From the NCBI GenBank assembly GCA_033763315.1, contig JANRKS010000035.1, positions 160,001 to 224,000 on the forward strand: a stretch of DNA of 64,000 bases, given 5' to 3'. Of the stretch, positions 21,218-52,094 are shown one piece after another. Positions within the stretch are counted from its first letter, which is position 1. The number at the start of each line of letters is the position of its first letter. The position numbers were made by a program, and so were the translations under genes. This DNA comes from Deltaproteobacteria bacterium (GTDB taxonomy: Bacteria; Myxococcota_A; Polyangia; Fen-1088). The notes beneath the pieces are model-generated. The model saw nothing but the letters and a program-made list of their open reading frames with translations, was not told where the DNA came from and searched no databases.

Positions 21218-21221
<4 letters not shown>

Positions 21222-21610
21222 TTCCTCTCCCGACGAGCCCGCGACTTTTCGAGGATGCGGTCCGCCTGATCCTCGTTGGACGCGAGGTCGTTGTTGTCTA
21301 TTCGTCTCGCCTCAAGAAATTGGTGAAGTTCTTTCGGGTCGATGAGGTTGCCGCGAGGTCCGTAGCCCTTGAGCCCCTCCAGACGCCACCGTCGAAGAGT
21401 CTTCGGTGATCGAGAAATCAGCGTGGCGGCCTTCGTGATTGTAAGGAAGCGGCGACCACCGCCGGAGCTTGCTCGCCGAGCCGGGAGCCGCTGCTCAAGG
21501 AAGTTCATGATCTCCCGCCTGAGGTCCGCAACTGCCTCCTCAACAGCGGCGCGGGCGACCTCGCCAATCGCTTCGTCGACTGAAGCTCGCCGAGCAGTGA
21601 CCCTTGTCAT
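21218..21610 (-). CDS. HTH_17/excisionase-like DNA-binding protein
   Basis: FLTITKAATLISRSPKTLRRW helix-turn-helix; 4-nt overlap with int start. Confidence 0.75.
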
Positions 21611-26814: not shown

Positions 26815-27014
26815 GATCGGCCTCTCAGCTTGCGCAGTGGAAGGGCCTCGCGCCGCGATCCCTCGATGAAGGCCTCGAGGTCGCAGCGCTGAATCAATCT
26901 TCGTCGACCCAGCTTCACGCTGGCGAGGCGGCGGGTCTGGACCCAGCTGCGCACGGTGCCCAGGGGCGCCCCCGTTTCGGCTGCAACGTCCGATATTTTC
27001 AAGAACCGGCTCAT
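26811..27014 (-). CDS. excisionase family HTH_17 protein
   Basis: FLKISDVAAETG..TVRSW..LASVKLGRRRLI..DLEAFI. Confidence 0.85.
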   Translation of the reverse strand: MSRFLKISDVAAETGAPLGTVRSWVQTRRLASVKLGRRRLIQRCDLEAFIEGSRREALPLRKLRGRS

Positions 27015-27098
27015 GCCGGTGGTTATCTGCGAATGCCGGCTGTCGCGCGATAACAGGAGTGACGGCGTTGCTGTTCTTGCGGGTTCGGCGAAGGATCG

Positions 27099-29401: not shown

Positions 29402-29812
29402 GACAGCACCGGCCTGGCCGCCGATGCGGCCCCTTCATCTTGCACATGTTTTTCTTTCCCCGAGGCGGGCTGAAGGGGCTCGTGGCCACCCGACTCGGAC
29501 GTTGCGCTCGTCACCTGACGAGCGTGAGCAAAGTCTGCGCGCCTCACTACGACGCTGCAAGGGGGCGAGCCGCGCGACCTTGATCTTTCTCTGTCCACAG
29601 AAGTTGCGGTTCTGATTGATCTGGGGCACGCCCGGGGAGTAACCTGACGCGCCGTTTTGTCTCGGAATGTCGGCTACTTCCGGGACTGAGGCTTCGACGA
29701 GAGGAACCGAAGTGGAAGCCGCACCGCATCCAAGATCCAAGCTCCGTCCACCACCGGCCTGGCCGGGCGGCCTTTCTTGCCCTCGCTGGACTACGCCGAG
29801 GGGTCCGCATTC

Positions 29813-36200: not shown

Positions 36201-36254
36201 AAGCGCTGGGTTGACGGTTTCCTCGCGCGCAAGAAGGGCTTGGGTTTCGGATGA
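33243..36254 (+). CDS. DUF1156 adenine-specific DNA methyltransferase, copy 1
   Basis: LHIWWARRP, motif I DPFAGGGSIP, Zn ribbon CEGPAC/CPAC, catalytic TDPPYY, VFAHKS. Confidence 0.92.
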   Translation: MSEARKYPKRLIEIDLPIRRISEHSRREKSIRHGHISTLHIWWARRPLGACRAVLCAALWPDPADQFCPDAFRVSAYEALAKLSAGIERDRPAFEIVGRHASIWRGFQQGSVRLDAGDGLMRLRDALLLFIGEFSSWNAATVPLLLETARRITRAAHTSLHGAHADLPSVLDPFAGGGSIPLEALRVGADAIASDINPIPVLLNRVVLEFGSDRLTTLRDTFASAARQVEERTRKFLAPAFETRAGAAPVAYLWARTILCEGPACGLEIPMLRTLRLSKHGKASSWLRLTHDEKERALVITVEQRESSTGAGTVKSGSVLCPACGYTTKGEAARAQLAARNGGSADARMVAVLERDTSGVKRFRAPEQVDARAHQAAVKLLDQLRADAGGLSTVPDELIPTERPSPNARGLSAVTRVGMRRFGDLYTPRQALVLAALAKAVREVTEVYRASATADADILNVLLAAAVSKRADFGSSLCSWRLGASCVRGTFARQALANTWDFGEMYPFAGSAGDWAEACAFIDKFLGHLVDSKLATGSVISASATHHPLPDDTVDALITDPPYYDSVPYADLSDYFYVWLRRALTGRNSLPGAGSPKDGEIIWNPTRSVGQRPKDKQFYEEQMTLAFQEARRVTKPDGIAVVVFAHKSTAGWEAVLEALLKAGWIATGSWPLDTERAGRTNAVGTASLGSSVHIVCRPRESASGAVVEGEVGSWRDVLQELPQRIHEWMPRLSQEGIVGADAIFACLGPALEVFSRFSRVEKSNGDVVGLRDYLEHVWAAVSREALSMIFSAADASGLEADARITAIWLWTLADPTDSGAKSEAGDSDEDDEVDDDGDGAEAAGFVLDFDAARKIAQGLGARLEELEAVVEVQKDKARLLPVAERSKFLFGKSVGGPSAKRPGKKKQMTLFAEIDEAAEAQGWGEVGAPRAGTTTLDRVHQAMLLFGAGRGEALKRFIVEEGVGKQPQFWKLAQSLSALYPIGTDEKRWVDGFLARKKGLGFG

Positions 36255-38059
36255 CCTCAGTCCGGATTGCAAAGATTCGTGTCGAGAACTTCCGCGCTCT
36301 GAAAGACGTGTGCGTTGAACTGGATGAGAAGGTGACTGTGTTCGTCGGCGAGAACAACACCGGAAAGACTTCTCTCATTGAGGCACTCACAATCGCATTT
36401 GATCACCGCGTCGCAGCCAAAGACGATCTCCACGTCGGCGCAGAAGGCGCAACCGCTTCACGCTGCGTGATCGACGTTCGAATCGAGCCGACAGAAGCCG
36501 AGTTCAGCGATGCGGCTACCGATCTTTTCGCCCAGGCGATCCAGGTCAAGGAAACGCCTCCCTTCGTTACTTTGCGCTACGTCGGAGAACCGAGCGGCGC
36601 CGACACGCGCCTCAGCGGAAGGCGACGATTTGTTCAGGGTTGGGCCGATACCGCGGCTGAAGCGACGAATCTGAAAGAGCTGCAATCCCCTGTCTATCGA
36701 TCGGACATGCGTGAAGCTCTGCTTGTTTCAGTGCTCGACGCGCGGAGGGACGTTGTTGAGCAACTTCGGCAGCGAGGCTCGTTCTTGAATGCACTGGTCG
36801 CAGAACTGAGCTTGAAACCTGAGCTGCGCACGGAAGTGGAGGAGGCGCTGTCTCGGTTGGGCCAAGGCGTCCTTGATGGAAGTCCTGTTCTCGGCGACCT
36901 GCGGAAAGAGCTTGAGAGCGTGTCGCAGTCCCTATCGCGAACCTCGTCAGGTGTCTCGATCGCCCCGCTGCCAACTTCTGCCGATGATCTTGGTCGAGCG
37001 CTCGATATCCTCGTCCAGGCACCCGGCGGCAGTCCGCTTTCTGTTCATCGTCAGGGGATGGGCACCAGAAGCCTCACTGCCCTCGTCGTTTTCCGCGCCT
37101 TTGTGGCGGCTCGCCTTCGACGTTCCCCTACCCCGCTCATGGCGCTTTCTGTGTTCGAGGAGCCGGAAGCGCATCTGCACCCTCAGGCCCAGCGCGGCGT
37201 TCTTGAAATCCTAGGAGGCGTACAGGGGCAGAAGATCCTCTCGACGCATTCCCCGTACGTGGCATCGGTGGCGGAGCCTTGGACCTACCGCACTTTCACC
37301 CGTGACTGCGCCAACGTTCGAGTTCGGGCCTTTGCTCGCACTAGGGGCGGAAAAGATGCCTTCGACGCCGGAGCCCTCGCAGACATCAGGCGTTTCTGTT
37401 TGGAACGTAATGGCGAGATCTTCTTCGCACGCACCGTGATCCTGGTGGAGGGCGATACAGAGGGGGCGGTGCTTCCAGTATTCGCCGACGCTCATTGGAA
37501 GGGCCGGTGTGATTCTCTCGGGGTCTCGATCGTGCGGGTGGATGGCGCGGGCAAGGCCGGGTACCTCGCCCGCGTCCTGGAAGACCTTGGTATCGCGTGG
37601 TTTTGTCTCCTTGACGGGGACACTGGCTGGGATTCCGGCGTGCGCGGTTTGAGTAATGCTCTTGGGCGCCCAATGGACGAGAAATCCAGGGAGATTGTCC
37701 GGCTCAAGGTGGGGACCGACGGAGTGGATCTAGAGGAGTATCTCCTTCGTTCTGGCTATGAGGCAGCGTTCGCACCCGCTCTCAAAGCATTGGACGGCCC
37801 ATCCGCCATCGATGACTACCGATCAAGGCTCAACGGGCAGAAGCTGAAGCGCGGTGGCATCCGAGACTACGAGACAGCGGGCTGGGAGAAGCGACTCCTT
37901 CTCGACTACGCGCGCGCCGAAAAGGGACGCCTCGGGCGCTTGCTGGCGAACGAAGTGCTTCGGCTCAATGGCGAAGGCGGTCTTGGATTGTTGCCGCCTG
38001 CGGTGCAAGACCTTTTTGCGCGGGTTGACGCGGCATTGTTGCCAAGGCAGGGACCGTGA
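36251..38059 (+). CDS. gajA: OLD-family ABC-ATPase/TOPRIM nuclease (Gabija GajA-like)
   Basis: VENFRAL, GENNTGKT, QGMGTRS, EEPEAHLHP, STHSPY; TOPRIM VEGDTE and LDGD; next to a UvrD gene. Confidence 0.8.
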   Translation: MTSVRIAKIRVENFRALKDVCVELDEKVTVFVGENNTGKTSLIEALTIAFDHRVAAKDDLHVGAEGATASRCVIDVRIEPTEAEFSDAATDLFAQAIQVKETPPFVTLRYVGEPSGADTRLSGRRRFVQGWADTAAEATNLKELQSPVYRSDMREALLVSVLDARRDVVEQLRQRGSFLNALVAELSLKPELRTEVEEALSRLGQGVLDGSPVLGDLRKELESVSQSLSRTSSGVSIAPLPTSADDLGRALDILVQAPGGSPLSVHRQGMGTRSLTALVVFRAFVAARLRRSPTPLMALSVFEEPEAHLHPQAQRGVLEILGGVQGQKILSTHSPYVASVAEPWTYRTFTRDCANVRVRAFARTRGGKDAFDAGALADIRRFCLERNGEIFFARTVILVEGDTEGAVLPVFADAHWKGRCDSLGVSIVRVDGAGKAGYLARVLEDLGIAWFCLLDGDTGWDSGVRGLSNALGRPMDEKSREIVRLKVGTDGVDLEEYLLRSGYEAAFAPALKALDGPSAIDDYRSRLNGQKLKRGGIRDYETAGWEKRLLLDYARAEKGRLGRLLANEVLRLNGEGGLGLLPPAVQDLFARVDAALLPRQGP

Positions 38060-39906
38060 AACCCTTCCAGCCCACCGACGAACAGCGTCACATCATCGAG
38101 TTCGCGGAGGGCTGCGCCTTGGTGGTTGCCGCCCCTGGCTCCGGCAAGACGGAGGTGCTTACCCGGAGGGCTGAGCGTCTGTTGCAGCGGTCAGAAGGGC
38201 AGAATGCGCGAGTCCTTGCGCTCACGTTCTCTACCCGGGCGGGTGACACGATTCGCGATCGACTCGAAGCAACGCTGGGCGCTGATTCCCGCAGAGTTGT
38301 GGCGCAGACGTTCCACGCGTTCGCGACGGATGTACTAACCCACTATGGGGACAAGCCGAATCGGACCATCTACGATCGCGAAGAAGATCGTCTGCAGGCT
38401 CTTTCCGAGGCCCTTGCTGATGAGGAGCCATTTCTTGGTGGTGTCGGAGGGAAGGAGCTGAAGAACCTTCTTGCTCGCATCGGTCGCTGGAAGCGCGACC
38501 TTGTTACACCCGAAGCCGCCCAACTCGAAGAGCCAGCGGAGGCGGCCGCCTACGCTGCATACAATCGTCGCCTTGAGCAGCTCAATGCTGCGGACTTCGA
38601 TGATCTCCTCTTTGAGGTAAACCAACTTTTCCAGGGCTCGCCGAGTGTGGCCAGGCATTACCGTCGCCTGTTTCGACATGTGATGATCGACGAAGCCCAG
38701 GATACGAGTCGGGTCCAGTACGAGATCATCCGTGCGTTGTGCGGCGCTGATCATAGGAACGTGGTTCTTTTCGCTGACGACCATCAGGCGCTCTATGGTT
38801 TTGCCGGAGCCGATCGTCGATTCCTTCGCGACTTCGCCACCGACTTCGCCCCAGTCGAGCGCTTCGGCCTGACGAAGAACTTCCGGTGCGCAACAGCGAT
38901 CGTTCGAACTGCAAACGGGATAAGCGACAAGTTGGTCAAGGATGTCCCGCGGCGAATGCTCGATGATGGTCGGGCGCCGGGGCGCGTGTTCCTGCGAGAA
39001 TTCGGTTCGGTAGAAGAAGAGGCGCAGTTCGTGGTCGGCCAGACCCAGCAACTGCTGCGCGACGGTCTTCCGCCGGAGATCCTCCATGCCGAAGAGGCTC
39101 GCAGTTTGGTTCCGGAGAACATTTGCGTCCTGGCGCGGGCCCGGTACGCGCTCGACGCGATAGTCGCCGGATTTGCATCATCTGGAGTCGAGGTCGCGTT
39201 CTCGAGCGGCCCTCGACCGGTGTTCGACAGCCAGGCCGGTCAAAATTTTCTCGACCTTTGTAGGATTCTGCGGAACCCCAAGGATGCGATCGCGTGGCGG
39301 CGCCTCCTGTCCGAACGCGCTGACGGAAGCCTAGTGCATCCTCCGAGCAGCCCACCCGAAGTGCTGAAGGTGCTGGCCTCCGGATCGGATGGTATCGCCC
39401 GTCTCGCGATGAAGGCCCAACGAGCGGCCAACCCGATGTCTGATGTACAGGTTCTGATCGATGCCGTCGGGGAAGCGATGCGGGACTGGCCTACTGGGGA
39501 CGAAAACGAACGAGCGAGCATCGACAATGATTGGGATCTGGTCAGGGATCGCTGGCGACGCGTGCGGGCCGATGCCGGACACGACGTTCCTACCCTTGAG
39601 GCGCTTCTGAATGACTTGTCCCTGGTAGGTCGGACCGCCCTCGACCGTGGAGGGGTTCGTGTCCTCACTGTGCACGCAGCAAAGGGCTTGGAGTTTCGTG
39701 CTGTGTTCCTGGTGGGAATGAATGAGGGCACGTTCCCCGACTATCGGGCCAAGTCGCAAAACCAGATCGAAGAGGAGCGGCGGAGCGCCTACGTTGCGGT
39801 AACCCGAGCCCAGCGCTGGCTGTGTGTGACCCGGGCGAAAGTGAGAGGCGCCTATTTGCAGACGCCCTCTGGATTCCTTCGCGAAATGAACTTGGACCTC
39901 AAATGA
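38056..39906 (+). CDS. gajB: UvrD/SF1 helicase (Gabija GajB-like)
   Basis: AAPGSGKT, TFHAFA, IDEAQD, DDHQALYGFAGA, NFRC, TVHAAKGLEF, YVAVTRA; GTGA overlap with gajA. Confidence 0.8.
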   Translation: MKPFQPTDEQRHIIEFAEGCALVVAAPGSGKTEVLTRRAERLLQRSEGQNARVLALTFSTRAGDTIRDRLEATLGADSRRVVAQTFHAFATDVLTHYGDKPNRTIYDREEDRLQALSEALADEEPFLGGVGGKELKNLLARIGRWKRDLVTPEAAQLEEPAEAAAYAAYNRRLEQLNAADFDDLLFEVNQLFQGSPSVARHYRRLFRHVMIDEAQDTSRVQYEIIRALCGADHRNVVLFADDHQALYGFAGADRRFLRDFATDFAPVERFGLTKNFRCATAIVRTANGISDKLVKDVPRRMLDDGRAPGRVFLREFGSVEEEAQFVVGQTQQLLRDGLPPEILHAEEARSLVPENICVLARARYALDAIVAGFASSGVEVAFSSGPRPVFDSQAGQNFLDLCRILRNPKDAIAWRRLLSERADGSLVHPPSSPPEVLKVLASGSDGIARLAMKAQRAANPMSDVQVLIDAVGEAMRDWPTGDENERASIDNDWDLVRDRWRRVRADAGHDVPTLEALLNDLSLVGRTALDRGGVRVLTVHAAKGLEFRAVFLVGMNEGTFPDYRAKSQNQIEEERRSAYVAVTRAQRWLCVTRAKVRGAYLQTPSGFLREMNLDLK

Positions 39907-40095
39907 CTTCCGGAGTTTTTCTCGTTCCGGCGCGCAAGACGGTGGCCCCTGCCGGGCGATCTGCGATCGGGCTGCCCGAAAGAGCTGGACGTTTCCACTT
40001 CAGCCGCTTCACGGCTCTGGGAGCTGATCTGCGCCGACGGGGCTGCGTGATCCAGGCGGTATCAGTTGATGCTGTCGTGATGGTCCACGCCCCGC

Positions 40096-40193
40096 ATCCG
40101 GCAGCGAATCCGGCAAGTGCCGCTGGATACTTCGGAGCGACCCGCGGAGCCCGAGAACCCGGCAACGAATCCGGCAACGGTTGCCGGATTCTC
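40096..40193. repeat. array of 12-bp-period ATCCGGCA repeats plus a 25-bp palindrome
   Basis: ATCCGGCA at 40096, 40108, 40169 and ACCCGGCA at 40157; GAATCCGGCAAC-G-GTTGCCGGATTC at 40167-40191. Confidence 0.8.
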
Positions 40194-40285
40194 AGAGGCA
40201 GATACCACCGCGATTCCGCATTCCTCGGATTCAACTGCACCATCCTGGCGAGAACGTCCCTCGACCCTCTGGAGTCCGGCGTGTG

Positions 40286-43192
40286 ATGCTTGCGACCGAG
40301 ACATACCCGCGCCGCCTCATCGAGGTCGATCTCCCGATCGCCACGGTATCGGGGCACGCGCGGGATGGGCGATCAGTCCATCATGGGCACATCACCGCGA
40401 TCCACATCTGGTGGGCGCGCAAGCCCCTTCCCTCCTGCCGAGCGGCCCTTCTCGCTGCCTCGTTGATCGACCCGCTCGACCCAGGGTGCCCGGCTGCGTT
40501 CAAGCAGCAGGCACGAAACGTTTTGGGCCAGCTCTACGGGATGGACCTCGAAGCAGACGGCGAGGCCCTCCGCCGCGGGCTCCTGCGGCTCGTCGCGGAT
40601 TTCGCGGCGTGGCAGCGCGCAACCGACCCGGCATTCCGGCATGCCGCCCGCGCTCTTGCCTCGTCGGCGCACGCAGCCCTTTTTGAGACGGGTCCGTCGT
40701 TCCTCGCCGATCCGTTCTGCGGGGGCGGCTCGATACCGCTCGAAGGCCTGCGGCTCGGGGCCACGTCGTACGCATCCGACCTCAACCCGGTCGCGACACT
40801 CATCAGCAAGGTCACGCTCGAATACGTGCAACGCTTCGGTGAAACGCTATTCACTGAGGTAGAGCGGTGGGGCGCCGAGATCGCCCGAGAGGTGAACGAG
40901 GATCTACGGCACCTCTATCCGGTCGTCGATGGCCAGCAGCCCGTCGCGTACATCTCGTTTCGCCGCATCCAGTGTGAAGGACCTAGGTGTGGCGCCGACG
41001 TGGTGCTAACGAGCAAGTTCCACCTTTCGCGCCGTGGCGACCGCTCCGTCGGCTTGCGGCTTGTAGGCTGGGATGGTCCGACGCCCCGGTTCGAGATCAC
41101 CGAAGGCAACCTGCGCGCATTCCCCGACCCGACCGTTCGTCGTGGTGCCGCCACGTGCCTCAAGTGCGGCTACACGATCCCCGTCGAGCACGTGCGCGAG
41201 CAGCTCTCTTCCCGCGCGGGCGGAGCCGCCTCTTCGCTCCTCGTCGCGGTCGCCGTCGATGGGTCCTCGGGCGAGCGTCTGTTCCGCGCGCCCGCCGACG
41301 TTGACTACGCCGCCTTGCTGACCGCTTCCAAATCCCTGGCTCAACTCGAAACCGCCGAAGGTGATGGGCTCTCCGAACTACCCAATGAGTCGCTTCCGCC
41401 GATCGGAACGCTCGGATTCCGCGTTCAACGCTACGGAATGGTCCGGTGGCGCGACCTCTTTACGCCACGCCAGCTCCTGACCATCACCACCCTGGTTCGC
41501 CTCGTGCGGGAGGCGATGCCCAATGATCGCGCGCCAAACGGCCTCGGGGTCGCCGTCCGTTCGTGCCTCGCGCTTGCCGTCGATCGACTTTGCGACTACC
41601 AAAACACCGGCTGCTCATGGAACCCGAGCGGTTCCGCTCTGCCGCACCTCTTCACCCGGCAGGCGCTTCCGATCATTTGGGACTACGGCGAGGCAAACCC
41701 GCTCGCCTCGTCTTCGGGCTCGTGGGCGGGCGCCGTCGAGCACGTTGTCCGAGGTCTCCGCAACGCACATGTCACGGCCCCTGGTTCGCCACAGGGCGAA
41801 CACGGCGCCGACGTAGGCCTGGCATCCGCGAGTCACCATCCGCTGCCCACGGACTGCGCGCACATCTTGATAACCGACCCGCCGTATTACGACGCCATCC
41901 CGTACGGAGACCTCTCTGACTTCTTCTACGTGTGGCTGCGCCGCATGCTCGCAGCCGATCACCCTGAGCTGTTCAAGACAACGCTGGTGCCGCGCGAGAA
42001 CGAGGCCATCGTTAATCCCGTCGCCGGCAAGGACCGAGGCTACTACCGAAGGATCATGACGGCTGCGCTCGCAGAGGCGCGCCGTGTGACGAGGCCCGAC
42101 GGCGTTGGCGTGATCATCTTCGCCCACAAGTCGACGAGTGGCTGGGAGGATCTTCTCGCTGCGATGATCGACGCGGGCTGGATCATCACCGCGTCGTGGC
42201 CCATCGACACCGAGAACGCTTCGCGCCTGCGGGCGCGGAACTCCGCGGTGCTGGGCTCGTCGATTCACCTCGTGTGCCGACCGCGCGAACACCGCGACGG
42301 CCGCCTCATCACGGACACGGTTGGCGACTGGCGCGACATCCTCGCTGCGCTTCCGAAACGCATCTCCGAATGGATGCCTCGACTTGCCCGCGAAGGAATC
42401 GTCGGAGCCGATGCCATTTTCGCGTGCCTGGGTCCCGCGCTGGAGCTGTTCTCTCGCTTCGCCCGCGTCGAGAAGGTGTCAGGCGCGGTTGTGCCACTTG
42501 AAGAGTACCTCGAACAGGTTTGGGCGGCCGTTTCACGCGAAGCACTTTCCATGATCTTCAACGAGGCCGAAACCGCGGGACTCGAAGAGGACGCGCGCAT
42601 CACTGCGATGTGGCTGTGGACGCTTGCGGGCGCAGCTGCGGCCTCGTCCGAAGGCACAGAGGATGCGGACTCGATCGATGAGGGGGCCGGCGGTGACAGC
42701 GCGATGGCGGGCTTCAGCCTTGAGTACGACGCTGCCCGCAAGATCGCCCAGGGGCTCGGCGCGCGCCTCGAAGCGCTCAACCAGGTGGTGGAGGTCAAGG
42801 GAGCAACCGCGCGCCTCGTCGCGGTCGCCGAGCGCGCAAATGTCCTATTCGGTGGAACCGACGCGGTCCAAGCACCCAGGCGCGCATCGAAAAAGCGACA
42901 GATGTCGCTGTTCGCCGAGCTAGACGAGGCCGCCAGGTCCCAGGGTTGGGGCGATGTCGGCACCCCAAGGGCCGGAGCCACGACGCTCGACCGCGTCCAT
43001 CAGGCAATGCTGCTCTTCGCTTCCGGCCGAGGAGAGGCCCTCAAGCGATTCCTCGTGGACGAGGGCGTCGGTCAGGGCCCGCTGTTCTGGAAACTCGCCC
43101 AGTCGTTGTCAGCACTATACCCCAGCGGCTCCGACGAGAAGCGCTGGGTCGACGGCGTCCTCGCGCGGAAGAAGGGATTCGGTTTCGGATGA
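40286..43192 (+). CDS. DUF1156 adenine-specific DNA methyltransferase, copy 2
   Basis: IHIWWARKP, DPFCGGGSIP, CEGPRC/CLKC, TDPPYY, IFAHKS; colinear with copy 1; start ATG 40286 (or GTG 40283) after GGAG. Confidence 0.92.
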   Translation: MLATETYPRRLIEVDLPIATVSGHARDGRSVHHGHITAIHIWWARKPLPSCRAALLAASLIDPLDPGCPAAFKQQARNVLGQLYGMDLEADGEALRRGLLRLVADFAAWQRATDPAFRHAARALASSAHAALFETGPSFLADPFCGGGSIPLEGLRLGATSYASDLNPVATLISKVTLEYVQRFGETLFTEVERWGAEIAREVNEDLRHLYPVVDGQQPVAYISFRRIQCEGPRCGADVVLTSKFHLSRRGDRSVGLRLVGWDGPTPRFEITEGNLRAFPDPTVRRGAATCLKCGYTIPVEHVREQLSSRAGGAASSLLVAVAVDGSSGERLFRAPADVDYAALLTASKSLAQLETAEGDGLSELPNESLPPIGTLGFRVQRYGMVRWRDLFTPRQLLTITTLVRLVREAMPNDRAPNGLGVAVRSCLALAVDRLCDYQNTGCSWNPSGSALPHLFTRQALPIIWDYGEANPLASSSGSWAGAVEHVVRGLRNAHVTAPGSPQGEHGADVGLASASHHPLPTDCAHILITDPPYYDAIPYGDLSDFFYVWLRRMLAADHPELFKTTLVPRENEAIVNPVAGKDRGYYRRIMTAALAEARRVTRPDGVGVIIFAHKSTSGWEDLLAAMIDAGWIITASWPIDTENASRLRARNSAVLGSSIHLVCRPREHRDGRLITDTVGDWRDILAALPKRISEWMPRLAREGIVGADAIFACLGPALELFSRFARVEKVSGAVVPLEEYLEQVWAAVSREALSMIFNEAETAGLEEDARITAMWLWTLAGAAAASSEGTEDADSIDEGAGGDSAMAGFSLEYDAARKIAQGLGARLEALNQVVEVKGATARLVAVAERANVLFGGTDAVQAPRRASKKRQMSLFAELDEAARSQGWGDVGTPRAGATTLDRVHQAMLLFASGRGEALKRFLVDEGVGQGPLFWKLAQSLSALYPSGSDEKRWVDGVLARKKGFGFG

Positions 43193-43869
43193 ATCATTCA
43201 GACCTCGCGAACGCTATCGTTCATTGGCTCGAATACGAGCGGCTCTGCGGGCGGTCAAACCTTCTGTCCGAGGCCGCCCTCAAGGCACCAGTAGGTGAGT
43301 TCTTGCTCAGCACACAGGGGCATTCACTTGAGGTCGAGGTGCCCTATCCGAAAGAAATGCAGCCCGCGAAAGGACGACCGAGGTCCGTAGATTTCTGCCT
43401 TCGGCGAGCGGGTGGCGGGCGAGTATGGACGAGCATCGTCGAGTCCAAGTGGGCCAACGGCAAACGGGACTTGTCCCAGGAGGTCTTCGACGACCTGCTA
43501 CGTCTCGAGCACGTCCGTCGATCCTCACAGGTGGAGCCATTCGAGCGAGTATTCCTGCTCGCGGGGCAATCGAAGGCCATCGTCCAGGACATTTTCGAGC
43601 GGGAGGCGAACGGCGCCGACGGGCGAGTCCGGCTGTTCGAGGGGGTGCTTCCCCAGACTGGTTCTGCCGGCGTCCCGGTGGCCAACGCCCCGGCCGGCAT
43701 CGTTAAGTATTGGCATGAGGCCGCAATAAACATCGGCCTCAAAGGTCTTCCGCTGACCATGAAGACGAAGCTTGTTGCTATGGCGAGTGCCGGAACCTTC
43801 GATTGTTGGGTGTGGCGCATCTCAAGCGCTCGAAATCGGAAAATCTGGGAGTTCGGAGAACAGAAATGA
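43189..43869 (+). CDS. putative PD-(D/E)XK nuclease
   Basis: Start ATG 43189 (ATGA overlap); EVPYP...SVDF...IVESKW; DDLLRL. Confidence 0.6.
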   Translation: MNHSDLANAIVHWLEYERLCGRSNLLSEAALKAPVGEFLLSTQGHSLEVEVPYPKEMQPAKGRPRSVDFCLRRAGGGRVWTSIVESKWANGKRDLSQEVFDDLLRLEHVRRSSQVEPFERVFLLAGQSKAIVQDIFEREANGADGRVRLFEGVLPQTGSAGVPVANAPAGIVKYWHEAAINIGLKGLPLTMKTKLVAMASAGTFDCWVWRISSARNRKIWEFGEQK

Positions 43870-46679
43870 TGAAACCCTGGTACAAGGTCGTGACCCCACG
43901 CGAGGACCTGCGCGATGGCAAGCCCCTCGACGCGTCGGAGTTCGCGGTCCACCTCGACCACGTTCGCGACGGGCGCGCGCCCGCCGTGTACCAGAATCCG
44001 GCCGAGTTCTTCGAACGAACTTTCCTCACGAAGAATCTCAGCGAACTTTCCGGGCAGGTCGTCCGCCGGCTTTCCGGGGTGAAGGTCGAGACATCAGCCA
44101 TCTTCAACCTCTCGACGCAGTTCGGTGGTGGTAAGACCCACTCGCTGACGTTGCTCTTCCATCTCGCGCAGCACGGAGATGCCGCGAAGTCCTGGAAAGG
44201 CGTGAACGGCATCCTTCAGGACGCAGGCGTCACCAGCGTACCGAAGGCGGCGACGGCCATCTTCGTGGGCACGGAGTTCGATTCCATCAGCGGCCGCGGT
44301 GGCAATGACGGAACGCCGCTTCGAAAAACGCCCTGGGGCGAGATCGCCTACCAGCTCGGTGGCGAGGATGGCTTCAAGCTCGTCGCCGAACATGAAAGGG
44401 AGCTGACTGCGCCGGGCGGCGACGTTATCGAGCGCATGTTGCCCAAGGGCAGACCGACGCTGATCCTTTTCGACGAGCTGATGAACTACGTAAACCGCAG
44501 CCGAAAGAGCGGCCTTGCGGCTCAACTTTACACGTTCTTGCACAATCTGTCCGAAGTTGCGCGCGCTCGGGACAACGTCGTTCTCGCGGTCTCGATCCCC
44601 GCCTCGGAACTGGAGATGACGACCGAGGATCACCAGGACTTCGATCGCCTCAAGAAGATGCTCGATCGCCTCGGCAAGGCCATCATCATGTCAGCCGAGA
44701 CCGAGACCTCGGAGATCATCCGGAGACGGCTATTCGAGTGGCAAGGGTTGCCAAAGGACGCCATCTCGACCATCGAGGAATACGAGCACTGGTTGCTCGT
44801 CAACAAGCAACAAGTCCCGAGTTGGTTCCCCGTCGAGAACGCGCGCGAGGCGTTGAAGGCGTCGTACCCTTTCCACCCATCACTGCTCTCGGTTTTTGAG
44901 CGCAAGTGGCAGGGTCTTCCGCGTTTTCAGCAGACGCGCGGCGTGCTGCGCCTCCTCGCGTTGTGGGTGTCGAAGGCGTACAGCGAAGGCTACAGGGGAG
45001 CGCACAAAGATCCTCTCATATCTCTAGGGACTGCCCCTCTCGAAGATCCACTATTCCGTTCCGCGCTCTTCGAGCAGCTTGGTGAAGCGCGCCTTGAGCC
45101 GGCTGTGACCACGGACATTGCCGGCAAAGACCATGCGCACGCTTTGCGCCTCGACACCGAGGCGACGCCCGAGCTGAAGAAGGCACGTCTGCACCGGAAG
45201 GTCGCGACCACAATCCTCTTTGAATCGAATGGTGGCCAACAGCGCGGAGAGGCAACGCTGCCCGAGGTGCGACTAGCCGTAGCCGAGCCTGAACTCGACA
45301 TCGGCAACGTCGAGCAGTGTCTCGAAGCCCTGACCGACCACTGCTACTTCCTGGCCGCCGAGAAGAATCGGTACCGCTTCAGCTTCCAACCGAATCTCAA
45401 CAAGCTCCTTGCCGACCGCCGCGCGAGCGTTAGCGCGGCCTTGATCGAAGAGGTCATGCGCAAGGAGATCCAGAAGGTGTTCTCAGCGGGGAGTGGCGTC
45501 GAGCGCGTGTACTTCCCAAAGAAAAGCAGCGAGGTCCCGGACCGCCCGGTGCTCACATTGGCCGTGCTCGCGCCCGAGAACCCGGCGCCCGAACCCGCCA
45601 CCAAGAGCCTCATCGCTCAAATGACCACCGAGAGCGGATCGTCTTCGCGAACATTCAAGAGCGCCCTCATCTGGGCGGTTCCAGAGGATGCGTCGGCACT
45701 TCTGGAAGAAGCCCGTAAGGTGCTCGCGTGGAAGGACATCGACGCGGACTCGGGCGAGTTGAAGCTAGACGAGACGCAGCAGCGCCAACTCACCGAGAAC
45801 ACAAAGCGCGCCGAGCGCGATCTTCGTGAGGCGGTCTGGCGGGCTTACAAGAATGTCTTCTTGCTCGCCGACGACAACTCGATCCGGAAGATTGACCTCG
45901 GTCTCGTCCACTCCAGTGCCGCGACCTCGCTCGTCGAGTTGATCCTCTCGCGCCTCAAGCAGGAGGACATCGTCGTCGAGGGTGTGAGCCCGAACTTTCT
46001 CACGCGCTACTGGCCACCTGCACTCCCCGAGTGGAGCACGAAGTCGGTGCGGGACGCATTCTATGCCTCGCCGAAGTTCCCGAGGCTCCTGAGGCCAGAT
46101 GCGGTCAAGGAAACGATCGCGCGCGGCCTCGACACCGGAACGGTCGCGTATGTTGGCAAGGCACACGATGGTGGCTACGAGCCGTTCGTGTACAGGCGTT
46201 CCCTTGGATTGGGCGACATCGAGATCGCCGACGATGTGTACCTGATAGTCCGCGACCGCGCGGAGGAGTACCTGGCCAAGAAGGCGGCGCCCCCGGCCGC
46301 CACGACCGCGACGCTGGCCGTTTCGGACGGCGTCGCACAGCCCGTGCCGCGCACGTCGACCGGTGTGCCCCAGAGCACCACGACGGATATCCCACGCGGC
46401 GTCTCGCCAACGACCACGACTTCAGGATCTTCGGAACCTCCGCTCGGAGCCGAGATCGCGGGCTTTCAATGGAGTGGGGAGATTTCGCCGCAGAAGTGGA
46501 TGAATTTCTACACGAAAGTCCTATCGCGCTTCGCGACCAGCGGTGGTCTGAAACTCGCCGTGTCGGTCGACGTAGAACCGCCCGGCGGCACCACCGTCTC
46601 GAAGGTGGAAGAAACGAAGGTGGCGCTGCGCGAGTTGGGTCTGGCGGAGGACATCACGTTCAAGCGGGGGCGGGGATGA
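43866..46679 (+). CDS. DUF499 AAA+ ATPase
   Basis: KPWYKVVTPREDL, FFERTF, Walker A TQFGGGKTH, Walker B ILFDEL, SYPFHP, FQQTRGVLRLLA. Confidence 0.92.
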   Translation: MMKPWYKVVTPREDLRDGKPLDASEFAVHLDHVRDGRAPAVYQNPAEFFERTFLTKNLSELSGQVVRRLSGVKVETSAIFNLSTQFGGGKTHSLTLLFHLAQHGDAAKSWKGVNGILQDAGVTSVPKAATAIFVGTEFDSISGRGGNDGTPLRKTPWGEIAYQLGGEDGFKLVAEHERELTAPGGDVIERMLPKGRPTLILFDELMNYVNRSRKSGLAAQLYTFLHNLSEVARARDNVVLAVSIPASELEMTTEDHQDFDRLKKMLDRLGKAIIMSAETETSEIIRRRLFEWQGLPKDAISTIEEYEHWLLVNKQQVPSWFPVENAREALKASYPFHPSLLSVFERKWQGLPRFQQTRGVLRLLALWVSKAYSEGYRGAHKDPLISLGTAPLEDPLFRSALFEQLGEARLEPAVTTDIAGKDHAHALRLDTEATPELKKARLHRKVATTILFESNGGQQRGEATLPEVRLAVAEPELDIGNVEQCLEALTDHCYFLAAEKNRYRFSFQPNLNKLLADRRASVSAALIEEVMRKEIQKVFSAGSGVERVYFPKKSSEVPDRPVLTLAVLAPENPAPEPATKSLIAQMTTESGSSSRTFKSALIWAVPEDASALLEEARKVLAWKDIDADSGELKLDETQQRQLTENTKRAERDLREAVWRAYKNVFLLADDNSIRKIDLGLVHSSAATSLVELILSRLKQEDIVVEGVSPNFLTRYWPPALPEWSTKSVRDAFYASPKFPRLLRPDAVKETIARGLDTGTVAYVGKAHDGGYEPFVYRRSLGLGDIEIADDVYLIVRDRAEEYLAKKAAPPAATTATLAVSDGVAQPVPRTSTGVPQSTTTDIPRGVSPTTTTSGSSEPPLGAEIAGFQWSGEISPQKWMNFYTKVLSRFATSGGLKLAVSVDVEPPGGTTVSKVEETKVALRELGLAEDITFKRGRG

Positions 46680-46781: not shown

Positions 46782-47996
46782 ATGATCGCGCTCATGCCTT
46801 CGACCCAACAATGGCTCGACGCTTTGATTGTCCCTCGCCGCGTGAGGGTCGACTCATCGGTTGGGCTTGCCAAAAAAGTCGCTGGCATGGGTGTCTCAAA
46901 GAGCTTCAAGGGAACACCCAAGAAGGCCGTGGCGCTGCCGAGTGACACGTTCCCCAACAGAGTTCACGTTCGCCCAGCTGAACTCCTGTACTACGTGGCA
47001 AAGGCTACGTTGCCCCAAATCGAGAATCTTTGCGATCTGTCGTCAACGTCAGCGCTGCTTCGGTACATTTGGGCATTCGAACCGAAACCGTCGGTCCACA
47101 ACCTGAAACTGAGTAAGGAAGCGCTGGGTATCGATTTCCACCAGAAGATGGTGATGTCGGACGAGATTGGGTGCGGAATGGGATGCCTGTTTGTCGAGCG
47201 CTATCTCAGGGCGTGCAATCCTGTGCCGATCAGCATGGCCCTTGCAGATTCAGCGAACGCTTTTGGTATATCGAAAAAGTATTCGACCTCACCTGACTTC
47301 ATTTTTGCCGAGCCCCGACCAGACGGGAGGTATGTGGTGTTGGAGTGCAAAGGAAGTCGATCAGGGCGCGCCAACTCAGAGCGACAATTGCGCCGCGGGC
47401 TTGAGCAGGTGCCTTCAATCGTTTTCTCGTCTCCACCCGCGCCACTAGCAGTAGTCATGGCGACCAGCCTTTCGAAGGAACGCACGGAAGTGCTGGTTCT
47501 TGACCCAGAGGGCCGCCCGACCCACGTACGCGATCGCACCGAATTTGCCACGACCGTGAGCGCCCTCGGCAGGGAAAGTCTCATCAGGTTCGCTGGAGCA
47601 ATTGGCCTCGCCCGCAGGAAAGCACGAGAACGCGAAAGCAAGCAGCCTGACTTCGGTCTAGAATTCGAGGGACCGCTGTCGCCACCTGCGGAGAAACCAT
47701 CTCCCATGGGCATTCCACTCGTCGGATTCCGGCAATCTGCCCAGATTGGCGATGTTCGAGTCGAGCTCTTCCGGGGCATCTCGACGGCGCAGTTCCGAGC
47801 GCTTGAAACGGATGACATCGAACGTTCGCGAGCAGCTGCAAACCAACTTTTTGGGGCCGCGAGCGCCTTGCGACGCGGGGAAGAGTTCCCGGGACCAGTA
47901 GTGGTTGCGCGGGGCTCCGGCGAGCGGGAGCAGGGAATTGTCTCAGTTGTCGGCCCCGACGGCACGGCGGTTCTGATTGAGGCGTCTTCCGAGTGA
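46782..47996 (+). CDS. putative PD-(D/E)XK nuclease
   Basis: SDEIGCG, SPDFIF...VVLECKG, GLEQ. Confidence 0.6.
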   Translation: MIALMPSTQQWLDALIVPRRVRVDSSVGLAKKVAGMGVSKSFKGTPKKAVALPSDTFPNRVHVRPAELLYYVAKATLPQIENLCDLSSTSALLRYIWAFEPKPSVHNLKLSKEALGIDFHQKMVMSDEIGCGMGCLFVERYLRACNPVPISMALADSANAFGISKKYSTSPDFIFAEPRPDGRYVVLECKGSRSGRANSERQLRRGLEQVPSIVFSSPPAPLAVVMATSLSKERTEVLVLDPEGRPTHVRDRTEFATTVSALGRESLIRFAGAIGLARRKARERESKQPDFGLEFEGPLSPPAEKPSPMGIPLVGFRQSAQIGDVRVELFRGISTAQFRALETDDIERSRAAANQLFGAASALRRGEEFPGPVVVARGSGEREQGIVSVVGPDGTAVLIEASSE

Positions 47997-48064: not shown

Positions 48065-48343
48065 CTAGTTCGGCGTGATGTCCCTTGGGTGCGCCATGTC
48101 GCTCTCCTTGAACTGCATGAGCGGGCCTCTGAACGGGCTCGACTCCGGCAGCATCGAGATCACCTCGTCGTACGCCGACGCGATCCATCGTCTCCGCTGT
48201 TCGTCAGACGGCTCTTCTCCGCGTGTCCGCGCCGCCAGTCTCACCGACGTGTAAAGCACCCGGGCTGAAGCTCGCAGTGACGCGATTGTGGCGATGGTCA
48301 CGTCCTCGATGGTGCATGTGAAGTTCTCGATCACGACCGCCAT
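48065..48343 (-). CDS. small hypothetical protein
   Basis: ATG 48343 preceded by strong AAGGAG; directly follows the second MBL gene. Confidence 0.6.
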   Translation of the reverse strand: MAVVIENFTCTIEDVTIATIASLRASARVLYTSVRLAARTRGEEPSDEQRRRWIASAYDEVISMLPESSPFRGPLMQFKESDMAHPRDITPN

Positions 48344-48364
48344 CTTTTTCTCCTTATCCGACAA

Positions 48365-49219
48365 CTATGCTTCTCGCGCCGTCCACTCGGTGGTCCGCGT
48401 CCCCCATAGCCAGCCCTTTGCCGTCTGGAAGCTCTTCCCTGTGTGCGTCGAGTACACGTCCGCACCTGATGCTGCGTAAAGGTCTAGCGCCTCTCGATGT
48501 GGATGTTCGAACTGGTTTCCGACGCCGGCGCTGATGAGCACGGTGCCCGGTGACACGAACCCCAGCGTCTCCTCGTTGATTCCGTTCCGCGAGCCGTGGT
48601 GGGGCGCCGCCATCACGTCTGCTCGAAGCGCTTTACCAAAAATGCGGTTGATGCTCTCCCAGCGCAGATTCTCGGTGTCTCCCGTGATGAGGTACCGAAA
48701 ACCGTCGCGGCCCTCCTTCGGGAACACCTTCGCCACGAGCGAGCAGTTGTTCGAGCTGCACATGTCCTCGGGGTGCGGGCTGAACACCTCGATGTCCCAC
48801 TCGGCCGACAGCGTCGTGAACGTCCTCTCCTCGATACGGTCGAGCCGAATCGGTATTCGATTGAGCGGCGACGCCGTGCCCGCCCTCGCGTCTGTGTGCT
48901 CCTTGAGCGTCTTGAACACCTGCATCGCCGAGGTCGTAAACTTCCGGTACTGCGGATGCATCACCCAATCGGGCCTGTACTTGCCCAGAATCCACGCGAT
49001 GCCTCGGTGGTCGGCGTGGTCATCGTCCCACCCCGTGATCACGAGCCCCGTCACCCGCTTACCCGTGACCGCCTTGGAGAGCGCCGCCTTCACATACGCC
49101 GCCTGGCGGTCCGTCTGCGGGGGGATGTACGAGTCGACGATGATGGCCTCGTCCCGCCCCGCGATGATTGAGAGCGAACCCTGCGCGACGTATGGGGTGA
49201 TGACTACCATGATGCTCAC
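48365..49219 (-). CDS. ComEC/Rec2-type MBL hydrolase with variant motif (GWDDDH)
   Basis: VAQG, IIVD, ITGWDDDH, ITGDTE, APHHGS, ISAG.GNQFEHPH; GTG 49219 overlaps upstream stop. Confidence 0.8.
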   Translation of the reverse strand: MSIMVVITPYVAQGSLSIIAGRDEAIIVDSYIPPQTDRQAAYVKAALSKAVTGKRVTGLVITGWDDDHADHRGIAWILGKYRPDWVMHPQYRKFTTSAMQVFKTLKEHTDARAGTASPLNRIPIRLDRIEERTFTTLSAEWDIEVFSPHPEDMCSSNNCSLVAKVFPKEGRDGFRYLITGDTENLRWESINRIFGKALRADVMAAPHHGSRNGINEETLGFVSPGTVLISAGVGNQFEHPHREALDLYAASGADVYSTHTGKSFQTAKGWLWGTRTTEWTAREA

Positions 49220-50229
49220 GCCGCCTTGGCCGGAATCGCATTCAAGCGCCATACCGGCCATGCCTTCAACGCCGCGTCATAGCTCGCTCCCGGCGCGTGT
49301 CTCCTGGCAAACGTTTCATTGCTGAATAGCACCTTCATCACGTCATCGGTCTGCACGTCCAGCACGACGTTGCCCGCCTGGTTGTTCGTTACGAACGGGA
49401 GGCCCCGGCTATTCCACTCCTCGTACGCGAGGTGCTCCGAGGGGGCATTCCCGAATAGCGTCAGCGTCGGCCTCATCACGTCGAGAAAATCGTAGTCGAG
49501 TCGCGAATGCCGGCCGTGGTGGGGCGCCACGAGGATATCAACGTCCTCGATCTCGCTCCTGTGGTGCTTCAGCAGGTGCTCGATGGTCTGCGTGCTGGCG
49601 TCCCCGCAGAAAAGCACTCGGAACTTGCCGACTCGGTAGAGCACGACATACGAGCAGTCATTGAACTTCTCGCAGTCGTTCGCCTGGCTGGTGAGTTCCT
49701 CGGTGGGCGCCAGGACGCTGAGCCCATCCCCGCCCCGCTGGTTATCCGCGTCGCGGTTCCAGAATTGCCCGACATCGCCATCGTGCAGGATGAGGCGCTT
49801 CGTCCCGGGATGACCGGCTCGAAGCTCCTGGTAGAAATTCCAGTCGTCCTCGTTGAAGCCTCCGCTGCCCGCACCGAAGTCCTTTTCGGCGGTGTTGTTC
49901 GTGTCCCAGAAGTTGTAGACCGGGATCGCCTCGAAGAGTGCCTTCAGCCCATCCATGTGGTCCATGTCCGGGTGGGTGAGAATGAACCGAAAGATCGCCG
50001 AGACCCCCAGCCCTTGCAGGTACTCGATTGGGTTCTCGGGGTGTACCTTCTGATTGAAGTTGCCCCTGGGAGACACGCCCGTCAGCGCACCGAGCGCTTT
50101 TTCGAGAATGGCCTCGGTCGACTTCGGGTCACGCGCTTTGCATACGTCGATCACGGTTACGCGCCCCGAGCCGTGCTGAATGATCGAGCAGTCGCCGTTT
50201 CCCACGTTCAGAAAATGAATTCTTGGCAT
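49216..50229 (-). CDS. ComEC/Rec2-type MBL hydrolase
   Basis: IHFLNVGNGDC, VID, LTHPDMDHMDG, NDCSYV, LFCGD, VAPHHGR; start ATG 50229. Confidence 0.88.
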   Translation of the reverse strand: MPRIHFLNVGNGDCSIIQHGSGRVTVIDVCKARDPKSTEAILEKALGALTGVSPRGNFNQKVHPENPIEYLQGLGVSAIFRFILTHPDMDHMDGLKALFEAIPVYNFWDTNNTAEKDFGAGSGGFNEDDWNFYQELRAGHPGTKRLILHDGDVGQFWNRDADNQRGGDGLSVLAPTEELTSQANDCEKFNDCSYVVLYRVGKFRVLFCGDASTQTIEHLLKHHRSEIEDVDILVAPHHGRHSRLDYDFLDVMRPTLTLFGNAPSEHLAYEEWNSRGLPFVTNNQAGNVVLDVQTDDVMKVLFSNETFARRHAPGASYDAALKAWPVWRLNAIPAKAA

Positions 50230-50233
50230 TCCC

Positions 50234-50992
50234 TCACTTCTCTTTCGTCGCGAGGTGCTCGGACGCCTCAACCAGGCGCTCGGCATAGTTGAACGCTGCC
50301 CTCCTGGCCTGCTCCTCGCTGAGCTGGACCTTGAAGAACCAGAGCAAGCCGCCGACTACGGCGCTCGCGACGATGGCACCGACTATCTGCTCGTGATTCG
50401 CAGCCGCCTGCGTCGCGCCAGCGGCCACCGCGGGTCTCATCGTCGTCACCAGCTTCGTCAAGGCGACAGCCAACCCCAAGAGAGAGGATGTGATGCCGGC
50501 CGTCCTGATGGCTAGAAGGTTGCGCCAGAACCCATAGGTGACGTTCTCGGCGTAGAGCAGCGGAAATGCTGCCTTGTCGCGGGTCTTGTTGATGAGAGCC
50601 CTCGTAATGGCCTTGTAGTCGTCGTCGAAGGCGCCCGGCCGCGCCTTCTCCTCTTCGGCGGTAGGAAGACGTACGTCGGAGATGACCTTCGCTATGAACT
50701 CCCGGTACCGTTGGAGGCTCTTCGGCGAAATGCGTTCGCTGCCCTTTCGAAGGACTTGGGTCGTCGGAGGGCCTCCCCACCTCGCCCATAGCCGAGGCTC
50801 AAGGTCGCGCCCCTTGTTTCGCACGAGGTGCGAGACAGCCGCGGCGACGGCCGCCAGCAGGGGCACGCTCGTGATGACGCCGATGACCGTGGTCGGGAGC
50901 CAGATCGTCATCGCGATCACGGACGGCGCAGCCACCAGAACGCAGGGCAGCCAACGCGCTCTGAAGCTGTAGCCGTCGAGCCCCAAGGTCAC
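50234..50992 (-). CDS. membrane protein with about 4 TM helices
   Basis: GTG 50992 after GAGG; DGYSFRARWLP, two TMs, WGGPPTT..LR, ENVTYGFWRNL, two TMs. Confidence 0.75.
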   Translation of the reverse strand: MTLGLDGYSFRARWLPCVLVAAPSVIAMTIWLPTTVIGVITSVPLLAAVAAAVSHLVRNKGRDLEPRLWARWGGPPTTQVLRKGSERISPKSLQRYREFIAKVISDVRLPTAEEEKARPGAFDDDYKAITRALINKTRDKAAFPLLYAENVTYGFWRNLLAIRTAGITSSLLGLAVALTKLVTTMRPAVAAGATQAAANHEQIVGAIVASAVVGGLLWFFKVQLSEEQARRAAFNYAERLVEASEHLATKEK

Positions 50993-51082: not shown

Positions 51083-51538
51083 TCACTTCGCCCACGGCGC
51101 TTCCTGGAAGTCCTCGATTCCGGAAGCCACGCGCGCCATTGCTTCGACGACCACCTTCTCGGTGGGCAGGACCACGGCCGCGCCTGTGACGCCAACATCG
51201 GCTAGCTGCCTCAGCCGTCGGTCGACGCTCTCGATGCCCTTGAACACGCTGGCCGGCAGCTCTTGTCGCGACAAGAAGATGCGCGACCACTTGCGCCCCT
51301 TCTGCCACATCGGCTTCGCGTACGGAAAAACAGAAGCGAGGTCGTCCTTCAGCCACTCGATGCGACTGCTTGGCATGCGGCTACGGGGCGCGACCTGAAG
51401 GCCGACGAATCGCATGTAGTCGGCTCGGCCGATGACCACGCAATCCACGCCGTTCATCCAAGCCCATTGAACGAGATAGCTGCCCAGCGTCCGATGCGTG
51501 CGCCTGGCCGCCTCGCGGTAGAACTTATCCGAGGCCAT
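51083..51538 (-). CDS. hypothetical protein
   Basis: ATG 51538 preceded by GGAGG. Confidence 0.6.
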   Translation of the reverse strand: MASDKFYREAARRTHRTLGSYLVQWAWMNGVDCVVIGRADYMRFVGLQVAPRSRMPSSRIEWLKDDLASVFPYAKPMWQKGRKWSRIFLSRQELPASVFKGIESVDRRLRQLADVGVTGAAVVLPTEKVVVEAMARVASGIEDFQEAPWAK

Positions 51539-51552: not shown

Positions 51553-51816
51553 TCAGGCGATGGTGAAGACCTCGGCTGACGGAAGCCGAGCGTATGCCAA
51601 GCGCTCGCTGATGGAGCGCACGCCGTTCTCGATCTCCTGCATGCCGCGTTTGCCATGGTAGTCGGCGAGGTTGCGGGCCTCGTCGAAGCTGACGGAGCAC
51701 CGGACCAGCGTCGCCGGCATCTCTCGACCGTCCGGCAGGAATGCTCTGGCCTCGATCAAAACGCCTTCTGCCGTCGTGGTTCTGGTGATCCTGGTGTCGA
51801 TGACGATAGTGCTCAT
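51553..51816 (-). CDS. small hypothetical protein
   Basis: ATG 51816 in ATGA overlap with upstream ORF. Confidence 0.5.
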   Translation of the reverse strand: MSTIVIDTRITRTTTAEGVLIEARAFLPDGREMPATLVRCSVSFDEARNLADYHGKRGMQEIENGVRSISERLAYARLPSAEVFTIA

Positions 51817-52094
51817 AGCCGCGGGTCCTCTGGCAGTTCGTAGTAGCTCCCGTGCGAGGTCCGCCGAATCATTCCCTCGTCGGCCATCCACTCGTACAGG
51901 TCCAGCATTTCGGAGTCGTTATCCGCCGCGAGCACGTAGTGGTCGCCGGTCTGCCGTCTGCGCTCTCGAATGCGCGCCAGCTCCTCGCGGGCGCGTTTGG
52001 CGCGGCCCCTGTTCTTGAACGCCTTTATGCCTACCTTCACGGCATCGACTGCCTTGTGGGCATTGCCGACGACGGCGAGCGCTTCGATACCCAT
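51813..52094 (-). CDS. small hypothetical protein (possible winged-helix C-terminus)
   Basis: ATG 52094 preceded by GGAGG; LYEWMADEGMIRRTSHGSYYEL. Confidence 0.5.
   Translation of the reverse strand: MGIEALAVVGNAHKAVDAVKVGIKAFKNRGRAKRAREELARIRERRRQTGDHYVLAADNDSEMLDLYEWMADEGMIRRTSHGSYYELPEDPRL

Follow-up and report, generated by a model that had tools for sequence, protein, structure and literature searches.

The 64,000-nucleotide (nt) stretch of DNA analyzed here, referred to as the window, corresponds to positions 160,001 to 224,000 of contig JANRKS010000035.1 of a Deltaproteobacteria bacterium (GenBank assembly GCA_033763315.1). It contains a compact cassette on the minus strand at positions 48065-50992, which combines a small membrane protein with two metallo-β-lactamase (MBL) fold proteins. 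The first gene (50234..50992) encodes a putative effector of 252 amino acids (aa) with four transmembrane helices (4TM; hereafter the TM protein), which belongs to a large unnamed family. It is followed by MBL1 (49216..50229, 337 aa), a ComEC-type MBL-fold metallohydrolase with an intact H-x-D-x-D-H motif and sister to PDC-M48B, and by MBL2 (48365..49210, 281 aa from the ATG at 49210, with an alternative GTG start at 49219), a ComEC-type MBL from a clade without the first metal-binding His. The last gene, a putative member of the cassette, is a small orphan open reading frame (ORF; 48065..48343, 92 aa) with an AAGGAG ribosome site and a GC content at third codon positions (GC3) of 0.82, which is probably co-transcribed. 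All four ORFs are real, with GC3 values of 0.80-0.83.

A preliminary description of this DNA, made from the sequence without database searches, reported tight packing with a 4-nt gap, a GTGA overlap and a 21-nt gap. All three are present; however, MBL2 more likely starts at ATG 49210, 5 nt from MBL1, where its homologues begin, so the GTGA overlap may go unused. The same description regarded the genes as a candidate new defence system. The data do not support a four-gene system complete in itself: the TM protein and the two MBLs belong to a larger family of interchangeable parts, of which 6A-MBL and the PADLOC candidate PDC-M48 are also members, and for the small ORF no relative was detected in 90 related loci, plasmids or PHROGs and no usable match by Atlas feature search (its Atlas model has a predicted local distance difference test score, pLDDT, of 0.83). 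A scan for promoters and terminators performed no better than on shuffled sequence.

The Two MBL Proteins

MBL1 carries the THPDMDH motif first noticed in it, and HPDxDH is found in 112 of 120 listed homologues. All ComEC metal ligands are kept, and the protein reads PHHGR, not PHHGS, with R240 invariant in 40 aligned sequences. Its best PDB sequence match is the ComEC beta-lactamase-like domain (E 4e-7). Against the PADLOC profile of PDC-M48B (PDLC04673) it scores 138 bits (E 7.7e-41), where core PDC-M48B members reach 449-497 bits, and in the tree it groups with PDC-M48B-type MBLs as a sister clade (support 0.96). The blank PADLOC result that was to support novelty is therefore not available.

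MBL2 has 1,494 homologues. TGWDDDH, GD, PHHGS and HPH are all present, as had been read from the sequence. Among 120 listed homologues, the first-His position is occupied by GF (95), SF (18), GL (6) or GW (1), and by His in none; the alignment indicates that the absence of this His is a trait of the whole MBL2 clade. The single GW is the window protein itself, so that GWDxDH, once proposed as the motif of the clade, does not describe it. The other ligands (D65, D67, H68, N157, D181, H207, H208 and H239, with GTG 49219 as the start) do not vary among 50 aligned sequences, and neither does an additional histidine, H149. The MBL2 model (pLDDT 93.8) has ComEC (9ic4; E 4e-17, TM-score 0.76) and Pce as its best folds, and the ComEC/Pce fold is likewise recognizable in the MBL1 sequence.

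Neither protein has a signal peptide, as both begin at the first MBL strand, and both are stand-alone domains without the ComEC membrane domain, far below the TIGR00361 cut-off; the first reading of the sequence was right on these points. A role in competence is ruled out by the lack of a ComEC membrane domain and of an export signal. Recent duplication is also ruled out, since MBL1 and MBL2 belong to separate clades and are 26% identical over 104 aa.

The Membrane Protein

The TM protein contains ENxxYGFWRNL, and 3,052 representatives of its family were found at E<=1e-3. The AlphaFold model (pLDDT 95.6), hydropathy and positive-inside counts agree on four membrane helices, and the Lys/Arg distribution puts the N-terminus, a 100-residue loop and the C-terminus in the cytoplasm. 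Conservation is 93-100% at D6, Y8, R13, R58, R138, E149, Y153, R157, N158 and Y236, all of them on the Lys/Arg-rich side, so that the conserved polar residues face the cytoplasm, the side of the unexported MBLs.

No match to the family was found in Pfam, NCBIfam, PADLOC, PHROGs or PDB sequences. Foldseek gave no match at E<=0.001, VIA-align gave a best Z of 8.7 with helical hairpins only, and the Atlas search returned unnamed clusters only; these failed matches demonstrate neither a new fold nor an absence of relatives. Neither the TM protein nor 150 aligned members matched PDC-M48A (HHalign probability 0.1), the only bridge being an indirect one through L002:7038-7448, and direct homology to another 4TM family, c9, was not found. 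None of the 150 members matched the Csx27 profile at E<=0.01; a two-step chain leads from the TM profile to family c13 (E 3e-4) and from a c13 member to Csx27 (E 0.005), which makes the relationship to Csx27 a weak lead. Families c9, c13 and PDC-M48A fill the same slot in related loci (L016:8875-9543, L079:6848-7510 and L049:7507-8001, respectively) and share a Tyr/Arg/Asn pattern ahead of the third helix. These three and Csx27 possibly form one superfamily. A relative of the TM gene (32% identity) occurs in a Ralstonia phage (ON170032.1, 24403-24990).

According to two reviews (PMC7642515, PMC8209922), Makarova et al. (2019) placed Csx27-like 4TM proteins beside competence-type and ubiquitin-system genes and proposed that they are single-stranded DNA channels; that survey may already cover the window TM family. 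The window protein shares the four helices, but the sequence connection is the weak chain described above and no Cas13b gene lies at the cassette. This connection bears on an explanation in which the MBLs would act as effectors by cutting DNA, while the 4TM protein would serve as a sensor or as a channel for DNA. It agrees with the metal ligands retained in MBL1 and with the DNA cleavage described for the ComEC MBL domain and for protease-activated defence MBLs. On the other hand, a His that ComEC requires to act as a DNase is missing throughout the MBL2 clade, and no protease gene was identified in the cassette. The patatins found in related loci are a further difficulty, as discussed below.

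Neighbourhoods of the TM Family and MBL1

A tblastn search with the TM protein gave 86 plasmid records; from the 40 listed, 20 were picked for diversity and examined. An MBL gene is near the TM gene in 19 of these 20 loci, with partners from four MBL clades. The pairing of MBL and TM proteins is thus a conserved unit, far beyond chance, as the preliminary description had assumed. The TM gene follows a 6A-type MBL and E2-E1-JAB pair in nine loci and is divergent from such a pair in two more (L009 and L093). It follows a PDLC04676-type MBL in seven, L093 included, and adjoins a PDLC04673-type MBL in two. The only locus lacking an MBL is L094, where a partial TM gene lies beside IS21. No cyclase is annotated in the 20 stretches. 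In L102 (3492-5862), an MBL, a TM and a ThsB-type TIR gene (PADLOC 3e-122) form one run, with the TIR gene downstream; this is the sole TM locus seen to adjoin a known signal-making domain. Relatives of MBL1 have a 4TM or patatin gene nearby in six of seven plasmid loci (L002, L003, L105-L108), and none in L004.

Tight two-gene cassettes are found at seven loci (L008, L010, L042, L070, L091, L097, L104). They would suit a toxin-antitoxin or guard pair, in which the MBL would bind the TM protein and keep it closed until displaced by a phage protein, as would an MBL2 that may be catalytically impaired. However, a single TM family has partners from four divergent MBL clades, and five effector classes accompany a single MBL clade, and we consider such a direct protein lock quite improbable.

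Neighbourhood of the MBL2 Clade

A genome scan confirmed 110 relatives of MBL2, and the following counts refer to the best 80 of 110. They are partly circular, as the effector profiles (patatin and three TM families) were built from these same loci; only the window TM and MBL profiles are independent of them. E2, Phd-fused E2, E1 and JAB genes lie directly upstream of MBL2 in 59 of the 80 loci; a small peptide gene is present in 57, and the JAB gene is missing in 17. An effector-class gene is present in 75 and directly adjacent in 56, in some cases on the opposite strand. The effectors are patatin (36), patatin fused to E2-E1-JAB (7), c9 (10), PDC-M48A (5) and c13 (3); the window TM family occurs in 15 loci, in 14 of them within the cassette, the copy in L055 belonging to another module. 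Five loci (L012, L041, L045, L057, L081) have no classified effector, and L041 encodes an unclassified two-helix membrane protein. On a tree of 76 tips the effector class changes at least 19 times, compared with a mean of 30 and a minimum of 24 after shuffling. Effector class is thus inherited yet often swapped.

The patatins keep their catalytic motifs, with DGG in 43 of 43. That the TM protein swaps with patatin in the same slot supports the role of effector first given to it. This also tells against the reading of the MBLs as DNase effectors, since an intact patatin replaces the TM protein in 43 of 80 loci (36 free, 7 fused), which points to an effector role for the slot and not to a channel. 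Taken with the evidence above, the DNase reading appears unlikely.

The flanking-ORF scan covered 123 ORFs (122 of 130 listed and one added by hand). Twenty-two, from 20 loci, match PADLOC at 1e-15, some via generic domains and against an unmeasured background. Only one, the hand-added ORF of L014, is a cyclase; L015 holds a similar protein outside the 123 ORFs scanned. No CD-NTase (cGAS/DncV-like nucleotidyltransferase) or nucleotide cyclase was found among the window proteins scanned with Pfam, NCBIfam and PADLOC, so that the lack of a cyclase reported at the outset holds for the window and, with this single exception, for the flanking ORFs of related loci.

A second MBL is present in 27 of the 80 loci. 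The MBLs could conceivably act as brakes: the TM protein would sense a nucleotide or DNA-breakdown product, which MBL phosphodiesterases would clear until infection overloads or inhibits them. Hydrolysis is the default chemistry of MBLs, the best folds being ComEC and Pce; the cassettes lack a synthase, and the same neighbourhood pattern would be expected. Metis, for which no supporting paper was found, is a pair of a hydrolase and a TM protein that senses methylated dAMP. The recurrence of several MBLs per effector would nevertheless suit several sensors better than redundant brakes, and in type II CBASS (cyclic-oligonucleotide-based antiphage signalling system) the enzyme that makes the signal is primed by E1/E2/JAB modules, which are described in the same way for MBL pathways. 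A braking role is therefore judged improbable, though worth keeping in view.

The MBL2 clade is found mainly in an operon of peptide, E2, Phd-fused E2, E1, JAB, MBL and effector genes (for example, L013:5099-9620 and L001:3143-8049; also most of L011-L090). The peptide is 57-66 aa long and contains LGGEY in 58 of 58 cases, and 19 end in GGEY. These features suggest that bacteria and archaea have a new, apparently undescribed system of protein conjugation that uses a short tag. In L033, L046, L061, L064, L071, L072 and L085, a 6A-type E2-E1-JAB protein has a fused C-terminal patatin (about 1,140-1,180 aa). These fusions imply that 6A-MBL systems carry effectors that are omitted by the two NCBIfam models.

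Conservation of the Three-Gene Set

The expectation that the genes co-occur elsewhere is borne out for the pairing and for tandem MBLs, but the exact order TM-MBL1-MBL2 is found in none of the 80 MBL2 genome loci. All three families are present in L063, where MBL1 is divergent from a peptide-E2-E2-E1-JAB-MBL2-TM operon. The closest relatives of the TM protein, MBL1 and MBL2 (53-67% identity) come from the same source and share longest-contig sizes of 9345 and 6989, and two further sizes, 68975 and 11342, are common to the relatives of MBL1 and MBL2, as compared by eye. Another shared size, 1414, is too short for both genes, so that coincidences in size do occur. The matching contig sizes, as distinct from gene order, suggest indirectly that the same three-gene set exists on two other contigs. 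Sequences linked to conjugation genes group into a single clade of the MBL2 tree (support 0.99), within which two loci without the module are nested. Window MBL2 falls outside this clade, with its closest relatives and L012, although support for the root is poor. On this tree, the cassette appears to represent a lineage that has no conjugation genes of its own, and not a decayed copy.

These data also bear on whether the unit is the TM protein with a single MBL, the second MBL and the small ORF being unrelated cargo or the remnant of a lost conjugation operon. The absence of the exact gene order, the small ORF without detected relatives and the need of most MBL2 relatives for E2/E1/JAB neighbours (59/80) are all compatible with this. 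They are outweighed by the shared contig sizes, by the three families in L063 and by the position of window MBL2 in the tree, and the one-MBL unit is accordingly given very little credence.

Genomic Setting

Profile matches (PADLOC, NCBIfam) identify HmaA, HmaB, GajA, GajB, a second HmaB and HmaC to the left of the cassette, and BrxE, BrxA, BrxB and BrxC of BREX-6 to the right, in agreement with the defence-rich context noted initially. In the Hma operon (29777-46679), two HmaB/DUF1156 methyltransferases (33243-36254 and 40181-43192) flank an inserted Gabija pair, and an orphan ORF precedes HmaC. Since an integrase at 19746-21221 abuts tRNA-Asp, the cassette is probably cargo of an integrated, tRNA-linked element. 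The region 19711-27117 is likely the left end and replication genes of the element: after tRNA-Asp and this tyrosine integrase, it encodes a family A DNA polymerase as well as a DUF3854/DUF927 protein.

Three co-oriented orphan ORFs on the minus strand (51083-51538, 51553-51816 and 51813-52094; GC3 0.80-0.82) lie upstream of the TM gene and are possibly part of the same transcript. They have no relative in 90 related loci and no family in Pfam, NCBIfam, PADLOC or PHROGs; the 151-aa ORF has no plasmid match, and none is conserved beside the MBL and effector module. A 404-aa orphan ORF on the plus strand (46782-47996) converges on the cassette. Its GC3 is lower (0.63), it matches no family, and a PD-(D/E)xK-like motif was recognized by eye. 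Profiles for E2, E1, JAB and E2-E1-JAB gave zero matches in the 64-kb window. No protease family was found among the neighbouring ORFs scanned, several of which have no family at all.

Relationship to Known Systems

PDC-M48 consists of a membrane protein (PDC-M48A) and an MBL (PDC-M48B), and the window likewise pairs an MBL with a small membrane protein. MBL1 counts as a PDC-M48B-type MBL, in a sister clade, whereas the TM protein does not qualify as PDC-M48A and the window has two MBLs. The types also mix elsewhere: PDC-M48A is beside MBL2 in five of 80 loci, and a PDC-M48B-type MBL is beside the TM family in nine of 20 plasmid loci. By these profile comparisons the cassette is half a PDC-M48 system and not a strict member. 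PDC-M48 is a PADLOC candidate that is not known to have been tested; no paper on it was found.

The 6A-MBL system (operon 6a of Iyer et al., 2006; NF058524/NF058523) also has a ComEC-type MBL in anti-phage operons. The window MBLs reach 49.6 and 32.1 bits against the NF058524 cut-off of 220 and belong to separate clades, and the window lacks an E2-E1-JAB (cap2_3) gene and a Gly-containing C-terminal tail. On these scores the cassette is not 6A-MBL. With CBASS and Pycsar it shares a layout of one enzyme, a swappable patatin or TM effector and optional E2/E1/JAB genes, but the module has no CD-NTase or cyclase, and the patatin and TM proteins miss the PADLOC CBASS effector profiles. It thus resembles CBASS without being a member. 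Protease-activated MBL DNases (Avs1a, HamM, Lamassu and DRT) have a ComEC-related MBL fold, occur in defence islands and give weak profile matches; in contrast, the window MBLs have no identified trypsin-, caspase- or subtilisin-type protease and are paired with a membrane effector.

The cassette of a TM protein with two MBLs, the His-less MBL clade and the peptide operon were not described in the literature searched, which was thin on subscription papers (most lay outside its coverage) and excluded supplements. Two reports mention 6A-MBL only in passing (10.1101/2025.09.30.679545; PMC13276650), and a third contains no passage on MBLs (10.1101/2022.03.31.486616). Earlier papers or supplements may already list the TM family or the peptide operon.

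Proposed Mechanism

Genomics shows that MBLs and effectors are paired, that the effectors are swapped, that the E1/E2/JAB module is optional and that the cassette lies in a defence island. The cassette is real and probably anti-phage, and it is a new two-MBL arrangement of a widespread, known but uncharacterized module of an MBL and a swappable membrane effector. As our preferred reading, held at somewhat less than even confidence, it would be a stand-alone cassette built like CBASS, in which ComEC-type MBLs replace the cyclase and the 4TM effector is opened by a diffusible signal that carries phosphate. Infection would switch on a cytoplasmic MBL, which would make or release a small phosphate-bearing signal by phosphodiester chemistry. 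The signal would bind a predicted cytoplasmic Arg/Tyr/Asn-rich site of the 4TM protein, which would then disrupt the membrane and abort infection; the TM protein probably kills the infected cell. The two MBLs, being from different clades, could provide two inputs to one effector, a parallel to Thoeris, where several TIR genes feed one effector.

A diffusible signal fits better than a fitted protein contact, because the partner serves a phospholipase and unrelated membrane proteins. The order of MBL, signal and TM protein is favoured by the CBASS-like layout and by two earlier studies. Ye et al. (10.1101/2024.11.21.623953) treat the MBL of "type II MBL" pathways as a conjugated signalling enzyme, and Iyer et al. 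(2006; PMC1779556) list an operon of an MBL and E2-E1-JAB (6a) beside a nucleotidyltransferase operon (6b).

Several points weigh against the signalling model. Every related MBL with data is a hydrolase: ComEC cuts DNA (PMC12455585), and the defence MBLs linked to proteases act as DNase effectors (PMC12642450, PMC12799240). The His absent from MBL2 corresponds, by motif alignment, to ComEC H598, which is among the mutations reported there to nearly abolish activity (PMC12455585), so MBL2 may be a weak or inactive enzyme. No MBL-made immune messenger was found in the literature searched. NCBIfam has only two 6A-MBL models, the enzyme and cap2_3, implying that an MBL system may work without a TM protein, and five of 80 MBL2 loci and one of seven MBL1 loci lack a classified effector. 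Gene neighbourhoods do not tell in which direction a signal would run, and the patatin and TM-family profiles derive from the very loci counted.

A broader proposal, which we regard as rather unlikely, joins these observations. ComEC-type MBLs would be unrecognized producers of immune second messengers, counterparts of CD-NTases and TIRs, that signal to dedicated patatins and the 4TM superfamily. The His-less MBL2 clade would have an altered, perhaps non-hydrolytic (cyclizing or transferring) chemistry, mostly primed by the undescribed conjugation system with its 57-66 aa LGGEY peptide tag, and the window cassette would be the minimal form with two sensors and one effector.

Although 6A-MBL and PDC-M48 are catalogued, no paper was found that states what their MBLs do. 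The neighbourhoods show that, in CBASS-like operons of both bacteria and archaea, these MBLs take the place of the cyclase and have as partners putative membrane-destroying effectors that can be swapped. The compact window cassette, free of E1/E2/JAB, offers a simple test case, and the patatin versions an in vitro read-out. If an MBL-made messenger exists, it would be a new immune signal, made by a fold for which hydrolysis is the only known chemistry.

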